A stretch of DNA of 64,000 nt, taken from assembly GCA_964016885.1 (NCBI GenBank), contig OZ024748.1, positions 56,730,001 through 56,794,000 on the forward strand. Reading direction: 5' to 3'. The stretch is from Eledone cirrhosa (lineage: Eukaryota). The notes beneath the pieces were generated by a model that saw only the letters and a program-made list of their open reading frames with translations, ran no database searches and had not been told where the DNA came from. A program made the position numbers and the translations under genes. Every line of letters begins with the position of its first letter. The first letter of the stretch is position 1. This document shows, one piece after another, positions 52,361 to 56,124 of the stretch.

Positions 52361-53556
52361 GAACGTGAGTGAGGTTGGAGGAATAATATATAAAGAATCA
52401 AACTGTAAAAAAAAAATGGAAGAAAAAAAAATGGTGGCATGCTCTTGGTGCTTTGTTCATTAGCTGATGTTGGTTATACAATATTGGCTGGGTTGATTGC
52501 GTGAGGTCGGTGTCGCCGTGGGGTCGTGTAAAGGCGAGGTCGGTAGATGTTTAGACGAGGGTAGGAGGTGAATGGACCCTGCGGAAGGATTTGTTGTTGT
52601 TGTTGGTGGTGTGTGTGTAGTGTCGCTGTCGGATGGGGGTAGGGGATCTATGGTCTGGGGTTAGATATATCTGTCTCCTGCAACTTCAGCTGCTGCTGAT
52701 GTTTCTGCTGATGTTGTTTAGCTGTTGTTGCTGTGCTATCTCTACAACTGCTGCTGCTGCTGCTGCTGGTGTGGATATTGTTATTGTTGTTGTTGTTTCT
52801 GTTTGTTCTATGGTGGCGTTGGTGTTGAAAATGCGGATGGTGATTGCGGAATTGATGGTTGTGGTGACGGTGGTGCTGGAGTTGTGTGATTTTGTTGTTG
52901 GTGTTGGTGTTGGAGATATTTATGGTAGTGGTGATGGCGGTGCAGGAGTTGTGTGTTTTGTTTGTGAGTGTTGGAGTAGGTTTTTTGAGTTGATATTTTG
53001 TTGTTGTTGGATGTGTTAGTGTTGGTGTTGGAGAATTAGGGATGATGCTGTTGACAAGAGAAGGAAATGATAAGAGGTGAGATATAGTTAGAAAGGTGGT
53101 CATATTTGGAAAGGCTCATGATTAGACAAGATGCTGAAGAGAGAAAAGTGACGATAAGACGAAAAAATAGAGACGGTGAGAGATAGAAAGTATTGGTGAT
53201 CGATAAAGGGGAAAAAAGAATGCATATAACAGAAAGAAAAGAGAAAGATAGAAAGAACAAACGAAAGAAAGAAGGAAAGCAAGGGATGCAAAGTGAATGC
53301 ATGGCTGAAGAGAAAGAGAGAGTAATAAAGAGCTAGAGAAAAATCAAAGAGATCGAATATGCAATAGAGAGATGGTTAGAGAGAGATGCTGAGGGTGATA
53401 TACTGACAAATACATTTATTAAGAGAACGGAGATAGATAGATGGATAGAAAGAGATATAGATAGAGAGAGAGAGGGATAACGAGGGTAATATATATATAT
53501 ACATACATATATATATATATATATATATATATATATATATATATATATATATATAA

Positions 53557-53681
53557 CCACTGATGAATTATAAGAGCCAACTTGAATAATTATCTGTTGA
53601 TCTTATACAAGCTTCTACATAAATTGGTATAATTTTACCCAAATTGTAGGAATCTTATAATGAAACGAGACGTCCGTCTGG
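53557..53681 (+). ncRNA. Type I hammerhead ribozyme motif with branched, enlarged stem II
   Basis: CCA-CUGAUGA-AUUAUAAGA...UCUUAUAAU-GAAAC-GAGACGUCC-GUC-UGG. Canonical core, 9-bp stem II base, GUC triplet at 53676-53678. Confidence 0.82.
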
Positions 53682-53886
53682 AAGAGATATGTTCGATATG
53701 TCTCATATGAAATAATACAGCCAATTTTCCACACAATACATTTAGTTAGCACCCGAACACTTAATTGGGAATATACTCACTTATGTCCTAACGTTTGTTG
53801 AGTGAGTAGGAATTTGGCCGGAGTATCGCTAAAAGCTTTCTCCGATAATGTATATATATATATATATAATATTCCCACACACTTTT

Positions 53887-53920
53887 CACCTGAAGAAGGG
53901 CTTATACCCGAAACGTTGTT
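53887..53920 (+). ncRNA. Minimal type I hammerhead motif
   Basis: CAC-CUGAAGA-A-GGG-CUUAUA-CCC-GAAACGUU-GU; stem III palindrome AACGUU; AATAAA about 35 nt downstream. Confidence 0.72.
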
Positions 53921-54297
53921 CCCCACCACCACCCCACTCTCAAGAGCGTGAAATTAATAAACATTCGTTGTACTGCCTCTCTGTCTTGTTCCTGTTCAAA
54001 TTTTCCATTATATATATGTATATATATATATATATATATATATTATATATATATATATATATATATTATATATATATATATATTATATATATATATATAT
54101 ATATTATATATTATATATATATATATATATATATTATATATATATATATATATATATATTATATATATATATATATTTATATATATATATATATATATTT
54201 ATATATATATATATATATATATATATTATATATATATATATATATATATATATATATTATATATAATATATATATATATATTTAAAGGTTAAACAAG

Positions 54298-54355
54298 GTT
54301 ATCTGATGAGGACGTACTGTTGAAGATAGCTCAGTACCTCTGAAATATGTATAAT
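54298..54355 (+). ncRNA. Type I hammerhead motif
   Basis: GUUAU-CUGAUGA-GGA-C-GUACUG...CAGUAC-C-UCU-GAAAUAUGUA-UAAU, overlapping AATAAA. Confidence 0.62.
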
Positions 54356-54941
54356 AAAATATATTTGATCACACGAATGTCTATTTTTGTTAATATTTTG
54401 AATTACTATATATATATATAGAAGTGTGTACGGATATATATATATATATAAGTGTGTACAAATGTATATATATCAGTATATATGCGCATGTATATATATA
54501 TACAACGTATTTGTTAGACTAAGAGTGTCTAGGTATGTATCTCCCCATGGAGTCGACACCACCAACACATCCACCACACCACCACAAACGCCACTACCAT
54601 AAACAACACCACAACCACGCCCCACACACGCCAACCCGTCTACCGACAACCCACTACCCCCGTACCACAGCCCATCCCAGTCAGCGACCGTCACCATCAT
54701 CTTATCATCACATCCACCCCCACATACACTACAGGCCAAAGCCAATCCGCCACCACCTCCCCACAGCCAATCGCAGCCAGTGACCGTCACCAACATCTTA
54801 TCATCACATCCACCCCACATACACTACAGGCCAGTACATCCCTTTGCTCCTTCCCACCAATCAAAACAACTCATATTGTCAAACTCTTGAACTTCTGTCT
54901 TTACCACATAGCATGTATTTCATTTCTTATAGTATTTTAAA

Positions 54942-55028
54942 GGGTCCGTCGAGCTGCCGATCATTGAGTCGGGTTGGATCGATACAGATCGAACCTTGAG
55001 CTGATCAGTGGCGAAACGCGCGTCACCT
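54942..55028 (+). ncRNA. Type I hammerhead fold with mutated core (CCGUCGA) and long stem II
   Basis: GGGU-CCGUCGA-GCUGCCGAUCA...UGAUCAGUGGC-GAAAC-GCGC-GUC-ACCU followed by AATAAA. Confidence 0.65.
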
Positions 55029-56124
55029 ACCAATAAATGTAATGAAGGAGTAACCAATCGTCCTTGTTATCCTTTCAATATATTACATTCTGTATAGCTC
55101 TACAACTCAACACAGAAGTGAACCTAAACATCGAGTGCTCTCCCGGGTGAACCTGCAGTAACTCCAAGTTACACCCCCTGGATATATATATATATATATA
55201 TATATATATATATATATATATATATATATATATGAGAGAGAGATAACGAGCGTAATAGAGAGAATGAGATGAATTAAAAAGTGAAACGAGTAAGATATCC
55301 AAACAGAGAGTGATCGAAAGTCAGATCCATAGAAAAAGACATGTGTGTGTGTGTGAGAGAGAGAGAGAGAGAGTGAGAGAGAGAGGAAAAAATATAATGA
55401 AAAGTGCAAGAAACACAAAGAAGAGAGAAATATGGAGAGAGAGAGAGGGAGAGAGAGAGAGAGGGTGAGAAAGAGAGAGAAGGACAGAGAGATTAAGTGA
55501 AAGAGAGAAAAGAGACAGACAGCTTGACAGGCAGACAGGCTGACACCTAGAATGCGGACAATGGACAGAGAATGTTAAATCTTTAAATGATGATAGGAAA
55601 AAGAGAATGATGGAAAAACAAAAGTAAATTTCAAAAAAAAAAAGGAGAATGGAGCCACACAGAGAACGAAGGTGCGAGGATATACCGTATATATATATAT
55701 ATATATGAGAAGAAAGAAGAATACTGCGTGGTTGCACATAGGTTACATATGATAAAAATAGTCCTTCGTCAGTGATTTTCCAACCATCATTGGTATTTCA
55801 TCGCATTAAAAATCAGATACCTCAGGTTGGTGCGAGCAATAACTAAATAAAGTTATTGGGACCAGTAATTCGCGTATAGCGAGGGAGACAAGTAAACAAC
55901 ATAGAAGGATAAAAGCAAACCAAATATAGGAAAATAAACAAGCAACATGGTTGCCCTGTCAGCTTAAGCTGGGTAGATTTCATGAGCAAGAGAGGTACAG
56001 ACCGTGCGATATGCGTGAGATGTAAGCATGAAGAGACCCACTACCAGCCAAACGGGAAGAAGTGAGAAGGGGAAAAACAGAGAGTGAGTGGGTGGAAGTG
56101 TAAGGAAGAGGTCAGACGAGAGAT

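Follow-up and report, generated by a model that had tools for sequence, protein, structure and literature searches.

We analyzed a 64,000-nt stretch of the cephalopod Eledone cirrhosa (Eukaryota; GenBank assembly GCA_964016885.1, contig OZ024748.1, positions 56,730,001 to 56,794,000 of the forward strand; hereafter, the window) that carries four different hammerhead ribozyme motifs (H1 to H4) on the + strand, each in its own short repeat fragment (cassettes 1 to 4). In our judgment, with a probability of about 0.8, four independent insertions are stacked in this region, each the 5'-truncated 3' end (pseudo-long terminal repeat, pLTR) of a different Penelope-like element (PLE) family or of a non-autonomous derivative of one. 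A preliminary description had left the choice between an insertion hotspot or independent relics on the one hand, and a composite unit whose transcript would be cut into pieces that circularize like retrozyme RNAs on the other. The components of the array are as follows (evidence in parentheses; the TA tracts have no strand).

53507-53554: (TA)n tract on the 5' side of cassette 1, a presumed target
53555-53850, + strand: cassette 1, probably the 3' end of a PLE-type repeat truncated on its 5' side, starting about 5 nt ahead of the hammerhead core and ending at (TA)n (tail copy elsewhere in the window)
53557-53681, + strand: H1, type I hammerhead with intact core (descriptor, folding)
53851-53872: (TA)n spacer, 22 nt
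53873-54006, + strand: cassette 2, a short pLTR-like end that holds H2 plus AATAAA at 53956-53961 (boundaries at TA tracts)
53884-53953, + strand: H2, minimal hammerhead (descriptor, folding)
54007-54281: degenerate (TA)n tract, about 275 nt
54282-54406, + strand: cassette 3 with H3, the end of a repeat from a highly abundant family (contig depth)
54299-54358, + strand: H3, minimal hammerhead with intact core (descriptor, folding)
54407-54502: TA-rich spacer between cassettes 3 and 4
54503-55181, + strand: cassette 4, repeat remnant of about 680 nt with its 3' end at (TA)n (self-comparison, contig depth)
54942-55037, + strand: H4, variant-core hammerhead (descriptor, folding, consensus of relatives)
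55182-55233: (TA)n tract 3' of cassette 4

Four hammerheads of probable Penelope-like type

The four hammerheads are real. They had been described as + strand motifs at 53557, 53887, 54298 and 54942, unrelated in stem sequence, separated by TA tracts and in three cases close to AATAAA, and all of this was reproduced. Our own structural descriptor recovered the four motifs on that strand in complete type I layout (cores at 53560, 53890, 54303 and 54946), and self-BLAST gave no similarity between cassettes. TA tracts lie at 53851-53872 and 54007-54281, with TA-rich DNA at 54407-54502, and AATAAA follows H2 (53956, 38 nt past the cut) and H4 (55032) and overlaps the cut of H3 (54353), there being none within about 200 nt of H1. 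For the chance test a stricter descriptor was used, tuned post hoc after the motifs had been seen. Between 53550 and 55050 it returned four matches, namely H2, H3, H4 and an overlapping alternative core at 54317 (H1 escapes it because its helix III loop is longer), against a mean of 0.006 in block dinucleotide shuffles of the same interval, none of which (0/1000) reached four. Over the whole window there were five matches, against a shuffle mean of 0.3 (100 shuffles).

Could these nevertheless be chance matches in AT-rich, low-complexity DNA? The post hoc descriptor leaves room for the thought, as do the unremarkable minimum free energy z-scores of the four hammerhead segments (-1.9 to +0.3) and the outcome of the Rfam scan, which reported no hammerhead family either in the whole window at gathering score or in 53000-55600 at E<=10, where its only output was TA-driven miRNA-type artefacts. 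However, the shuffles, a palindromic helix III in all four motifs, the peaks of repeat depth at H3 and H4, and the retention of both core and palindrome in relatives refute chance in practice, and we give it next to no weight.

H1 has its core CTGATGA at 53560, GAAA at 53662, a GUC cut after 53678, a 3-bp stem I, a 9-bp stem II enclosing a 95-nt insert, and a near-palindromic 13-nt helix III segment. H2 (core CTGAAGA at 53890, cut after 53917) combines a 2-bp proximal stem I and a 4-nt palindromic helix III with a bulged A following A9, and then a 3-bp stem II with G10.1-C11.1; 30 nt (53920-53949), probably inserted later, interrupt the 3' strand of its stem I, and pairing with the 5' strand resumes just before AATAAA. 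The core CTGATGA of H3 lies at 54303, with an AUA site cut after 54353, a 4-bp stem I overlapped by AATAAA, an 8-nt palindromic helix III and a stem II closed by a weak G.U pair. H4 carries the variant core CCGTCGA at 54946 (U4C, A6U), a GUC cut after 55024, a 4-bp stem I, AATAAA at 55032, a long branched stem II (60-nt insert, 5-bp proximal part), and a perfect 8-nt palindromic helix III. Three of the four look damaged, H2 by the 30-nt interruption, H3 by its G.U closure and H4 by its core changes.

All four are type I with a stem I of 2-4 bp, and in each the helix III segment is self-complementary (13, 4, 8 and 8 nt for H1 to H4). It is this palindromic or near-palindromic helix III in every motif that we take as the signature of the minimal hammerhead ribozymes (min-HHRs) of PLEs. 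The homoduplex energies of these segments are -14.7, -1.7, -2.2 and -13.3 kcal/mol for H1 to H4, the best heteroduplex reaching -5.8; the segments of H1, H3 and H4 pair more strongly with themselves than with any of the others, which does not hold for the 4-nt segment of H2. When the motifs are folded as monomers, helix III has a probability of 0.0 in all four. The core CUGANGA...GAAA...UH is complete in H1, H2 and H3, whereas H4 has two substitutions, of which the one at A6 is not shared by its relatives. The min-HHRs in PLE terminal repeats are mostly single motifs left by truncated elements; they do not cleave as monomers, and as dimers they cleave at a low level (PMC4209133, PMC6765202). 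Changes at A6 are reported to give low activity, and U4C reduced activity (PMC3088659). The array motifs are hammerheads of the dimer type, none of which has its cognate partner in cis, and because they are single copies of different families they are probably now near-inert.

Cassettes as members of separate repeat families

The cassettes are supported as separate repeat families, each with its own boundaries at TA tracts. The last 164 nt of cassette 1 (53687-53850) recur far upstream (86%, E 7e-51, self-BLAST):

24594-24758, + strand: second, independent and more truncated cassette 1 tail, lacking both a hammerhead and cassettes 2-4 (self-BLAST)

Both copies have an identical 3' end at (TA)n, and the upstream one has (TA)n on either side. 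For cassettes 3 and 4 the evidence comes from contig mapping at 80% likeness, performed for 54285-55180 only (896 nt) with four runs. Two of them (X1 and X2) are from one sample, possibly the one from which the window itself derives, X4 is from another sample of the same study, and X21 is a restriction site-associated DNA sequencing (RAD-seq) run. Mapped contigs numbered more than 10,000 in each of X1 and X2 (11,569 in X1) and 446 in X4. Summed depth, which is not copy number and whose highest bin is AT-rich, was used only for the shape of its profile. In X1, it was 370,084 at 54315-54344 and 746,551 at 54345-54374 on cassette 3, and on cassette 4 it was 2,129-23,573 across 54525-54944 versus 279,032-357,215 across 54975-55064, which holds H4 and the poly(A) signal. 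On hammerheads 3 and 4, contig depth exceeds that of the intervening DNA 15- to 170-fold. Such unevenness speaks against amplification of the whole as one unit, because such a unit would give a roughly flat depth, and the sharp drop in depth on the 5' side of cassette 4 is what 5' truncation predicts.

The pieces listed (24 of 23,840, with 15 of 58 joints) end at the edges of the cassettes, among them an X4 piece at 54302-54409 and cassette 4 pieces starting at 54489 and 54524. None of the listed pieces spans cassettes 3 and 4, a weak negative given the small share listed and the breaking of short-read contigs at TA tracts. The joints listed include some from 55174 into GGATATATA-like sequence, and thus other cassette 4 copies likewise end in a TA-like tract. 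AATAAA past the hammerhead is a trait of the cassette 4 family (loose end behind 55026, 145-148 contigs). Dispersed, multi-copy membership was therefore found for cassette 1 (by its tail copy) and for cassettes 3 and 4 (by contig depth), and the combination of 5' truncation, a fixed 3' end and a microsatellite target was found in the cassette 1 copies and in the depth gradient and 3' joints of cassette 4. The 5' part of cassette 4 is C-rich, with an internal duplication of about 96 nt. Cassettes 1 to 3 (starts at 53555, 53873 and 54282) begin only 6-22 nt upstream of the hammerhead core; reverse transcription may often halt just beyond the ribozyme, with the caveat that these starts are few and selected.

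An element with this anatomy in the same window

The window also holds a PLE that serves as an internal positive control:

4908-6480, - strand: 5'-truncated PLE (tblastn, self-BLAST, hammerhead scan)

It retains the remnant of an open reading frame (ORF) at 5431-6323, running from the reverse transcriptase (RT) thumb to GIY-YIG with one frameshift near 5545. When eight longer PLE proteins were compared with the window by tblastn, they matched only 5431-6356 (E down to 1e-86), apart from one match at E=0.74. The ORF fragment P0001 of this element shares 58% identity with an RT-domain protein that carries the label Octopus vulgaris, and three of the four relatives scanned had an RVT_1 or GIY-YIG match, all below the Pfam cut-off. 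From the Cys linker, we presume P0001 to be Neptune-like. Downstream of the RT/GIY-YIG ORF lies a hammerhead at 5145 (- strand) with a perfect core, both the bulged nucleotide after A9 and G10.1-C11.1, a 6-bp G-C-closed stem II and a decayed helix III. An inverted copy of the element's own 3' end stands on its 5' side (6331-6480, 150 nt, 94%), and there are TA tracts near both ends. This anatomy indicates that PLEs of the E. cirrhosa genome do leave hammerhead-bearing, TA-flanked ends.

Three motifs in the window beyond the array, at 3831 (-), 5145 (-) and 7195 (+), were picked by eye from scans of unequal stringency; the one at 5145 was retained, although its helix III is decayed, for the sake of a perfect core, a 6-bp stem II and its PLE ORF context. 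Low-grade descriptor matches at 46302, 12395 and 54317 were dropped, as they lacked a palindromic helix III or were overlapping. The best-preserved hammerhead of the window is at 3737-3836 (-), with an intact core, an 8-bp stem II, a perfect 8-nt palindromic helix III and a 5-bp stem I. One TA tract lies 65 nt upstream of it and another 262 nt downstream, and there is a short inverted repeat at 3387-3464. The motif at 7191-7250 (+) is decayed (palindromic helix III, 4-bp stem I, only a 2-bp stem II); it immediately precedes a (CA)n/(TA)n tract, with no clear ORF upstream.

Origin of the stack and competing explanations

On our preferred reading, that of independent insertions, each cassette would descend from a PLE, the TA tracts would be endonuclease targets, and insertion would have been serial. 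The GIY-YIG endonuclease of a PLE would nick a (TA)n tract, and reverse transcription would begin at the RNA 3' end and usually stop early, leaving a tail with hammerhead and poly(A) signal. As the insert keeps its (TA)n flanks, the site would stay a target, and different families would pile up side by side. In the parents of the cassettes, two copies of a minimal hammerhead would pair by their palindromic helix III and cleave as a homodimer; this pairing potential is what we computed. Known PLE behavior is compatible with this: insertion is biased to microsatellites, inverted 5' segments are a PLE trait (PMC8557442), and PLEs insert into or next to existing PLE copies (PMC6765202).

The array is a local stack and not a uniform scatter. 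When seven motifs are placed randomly on non-TA positions, four fall within 1,386 nt with P=0.002, and are also co-oriented with P=0.0003. Together with the separate families and their TA boundaries, this clustering supports the hotspot or independent-relics branch of the preliminary description. A look-elsewhere correction applies because the array was selected from a genome-wide scan. Under a Poisson model (assuming a 2.5-Gb genome and the motif density of the window, excluding or including the cluster), 5.6-142 four-clusters are expected genome-wide, of which 0.7-18 would be co-oriented, before any target preference. The shared orientation has a chance of 1 in 8, the other window hammerheads are on both strands, and chance is most simply its cause.

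Several observations weigh against four independent PLE ends. Self-BLAST found no second copy of cassette 2 within the window, and the read data cover cassettes 3 and 4 only. The Rfam scan is negative, as described above. The bulge after A9 with G10.1-C11.1, which is typical, if not universal, in PLE min-HHRs (PMC4209133), occurs in only one of the four motifs (H2; H4 has G-C without the bulge, H1 A-U and H3 G.U). PLE protein sequence is absent from the four cassettes (tblastn of the eight proteins; translations), so their assignment rests on RNA motif and context; absence of an ORF remnant is, however, expected after truncation. The H1-H2 fragment folds better than its shuffles as a circle (z=-2.9), a mild objection. 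Finally, in the window alone, the P=0.0003 for a co-oriented cluster makes plain randomness dependent on the look-elsewhere argument.

One competing explanation differs from ours on orientation only, in that it accepts independent PLE ends but has their polarity caused, either because new copies prime beside an earlier PLE 3' end in the same direction or because selection purges sense-oriented hammerhead/AATAAA inserts from a minus-strand host transcript. All four array motifs are on the + strand, the nearest two of the other cluster (3831 and 5145) are both on the - strand, and the local clustering is as this explanation would have it. However, the array was chosen for its co-orientation, which is in any case a 1-in-8 outcome; the motif at 7195 is on the + strand only 2 kb from the two - strand motifs; and no host exon was recognized in the window (12 ORFs against Pfam). 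We regard such a polarity bias as rather unlikely, although ahead of the remaining explanation. According to the latter, a joint transcript is cut at all four sites into pieces of 239, 436 and 671 nt that circularize like retrozymes, and the array is mobilized as one. The motifs are indeed co-oriented and tightly spaced, two of the three fragment sizes fall within the 150-450 nt range of retrozymes (PMC7229834), and circular-fold z-scores (60 shuffles each) are -2.9 for H1-H2 and -8.0 for H2-H3. Both of these fragments contain self-pairing (TA)n tracts, the H2-H3 fragment consisting mostly of such sequence, to which we would attribute the -8.0; the H3-H4 circle has z=+0.16. A retrozyme consists of tandem copies of a single 150-450-bp unit (PMC7229834; bioRxiv 10.64898/2026.07.22.740005), whereas self-comparison found no consecutive copies of one hammerhead unit here, and stem I at the junctions of the putative circles would have 0, 2 and 2 bp. 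Nor do the near-zero probability of the active monomer fold in all four motifs, the heterologous helix III pairing (at best -5.8, versus -13 to -15 kcal/mol for the H1 and H4 homoduplexes), the occurrence of the cassette 1 tail apart from the others, the damage to three motifs, and the 15- to 170-fold depth difference between hammerheads 3 and 4 and their linking DNA fit a composite unit. The composite branch of the preliminary description thus fails on the lack of a repeated unit, the junction stems and the uneven depth of cassettes 3-4, and we hold it to be very improbable.

Heterodimers in cis among the four were also considered. The best pairs the H4 enzyme half with the H2 substrate, and is unlikely: its 4-bp stem I has one Watson-Crick pair, its helix III has 3 bp, and the H4 core is mutated. 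Also very improbable is a mixed head-to-tail chain of four PLE family ends, built by orientation-locked insertion and now transcribed across and processed or co-mobilized as one unit, with cleavage in trans by abundant parent-family transcripts that pair through family-specific palindromes; a literature search returned no example of a heterologous multi-ribozyme cassette.

A variant core and a short tandem among relatives

Loose-end consensuses before 54966 give the core of the H4 relatives as CTGACGA (X1, 128 contigs), CCGACGA (X2, 131) and CCGACAA (X4, 7), with agreement of 66-68%; position 6 is A, and position 4 is C or T. These consensuses make A6U probably private to the H4 copy here and C4 a common state. 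In the contigs mapped to cassettes 3-4, C>T and G>A rank with the most frequent changes, and CpG decay from an ancestral C4 is a possible history of the H4 family. On the contig consensuses, U4C may be a common, or the ancestral, core state of this high-copy family. U4C-type PLE variants may already be described in Luense et al. 2017. Our literature search for U4C together with retrotransposons returned only PMC3088659, where the change is reported for a viroid. Exact search for a 19-nt H4 motif in metagenomes gave 31 loci, in which similarity never extended past the seed (longest 32 nt), and these were set aside as chance. An H2 pattern occurred in 0 viral contigs and 0 prokaryotic genome contigs, which is uninformative for an animal repeat.

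One joint connects 54356 to the earlier position 54299 across 23 letters (depth 138 in X1 and 103 in X2), which implies that H3 is repeated head to tail elsewhere in the genome, in units of 81 nt (58 nt and a linker of 23 nt). The 81-nt tandem is a candidate mini-retrozyme, judged from the reads, that could form homodimers in cis; the size of known retrozyme units, 150-450 bp, is above it (PMC7229834).

Setting and other features of the window

(TA)n makes up 14,750 of the 64,000 nt, in 104 merged tracts. No Pfam match was significant in a scan of 12 window ORFs, P0001 included, and the ORF list and translations show no coding ORF in the hammerhead array. The window's only match to a double telomeric hexamer is that at 8088, and it contains one mismatch. 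Minisatellite arrays with G/T or C/A skew occupy 17790-19850 (unit about 36 nt), 20380-21320 (about 33) and 46740-47870 (about 60), and account for the GC-skew peaks of the window. TA-flanked fragments at 43020-43190 and 29260-29590 belong to one shared repeat family, in which no hammerhead was detected. Immediately past a TA tract, 38755-38869 is a 115-nt near-perfect inverted repeat (86%), and comparable inverted junctions occur at 3387-3464, 6570-6645 and 51125-51275; these are probably the inverted 5' ends of further insertions. From its appearance, we take 23260-24130 to be what is left of a Tc1/mariner-like DNA transposon, now decayed, that has terminal inverted repeats, and a short reading frame at about 61370-61545 (-; MKSHIEDF...) presumably resembles a fragment of a DNA-transposon protein. 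Other repeats in the window look to us like octopus SINEs (short interspersed nuclear elements). In O. vulgaris, PLEs are a recognized, recently active repeat class, with 31 families showing recent insertions (PMC13282606); the main text of that source does not contain the word "hammerhead".

Significance and comparison with known systems

As it stands, the array matters little beyond showing that (TA)n tracts in a cephalopod genome gather the ends of several PLE families. It also carries a caution: hammerhead clusters in such genomes are to be expected, and are invisible to Rfam. The high-copy family with a U4C core and the 81-nt hammerhead tandem are of possible ribozyme interest. The composite reading, if true, would mean a new mode of RNA processing using heterologous ribozymes.

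Among known systems, terminons resemble the array in being PLE-related arrays with several hammerheads, but they are giant, rich in ORFs and attached to telomeres, and telomeric repeats adjoin the hammerhead (PMC6431247); none of this applies to the array. Metazoan non-LTR retrozymes share type I hammerheads and short, non-coding, low-GC units that are probably PLE-derived, and solo monomers exist (PMC7229834; bioRxiv 10.64898/2026.07.22.740005). However, theirs are tandems of the same unit, in which the ribozyme re-forms on the circle, whereas the units here are unrelated, with (TA)n between them, and stem I is not rebuilt across the junction. The microsatellite-biased PLE clades Neptune and Naiad are alike in (TA)n insertion without discernible target duplication, in 5' truncation and in an inverted 5' segment such as that of the 4908-6480 element (PMC8557442). 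Naiads are described there as lacking canonical hammerheads, and the four cassettes, being without ORFs, carry no clade label. The closest match is to the minimal type I hammerheads of metazoan PLE pLTRs (PMC4209133). They differ from the array in that here four families occur within 1.4 kb, none with an attached PLE ORF, that the stem II inserts of H1 and H4 are very long (95 and 60 nt), and that the H4 core has U4C and A6U. They share with it the type I topology, the short stem I and the small palindromic helix III, and they too occur mostly as solitary copies of truncated PLEs, with several unrelated families per genome.

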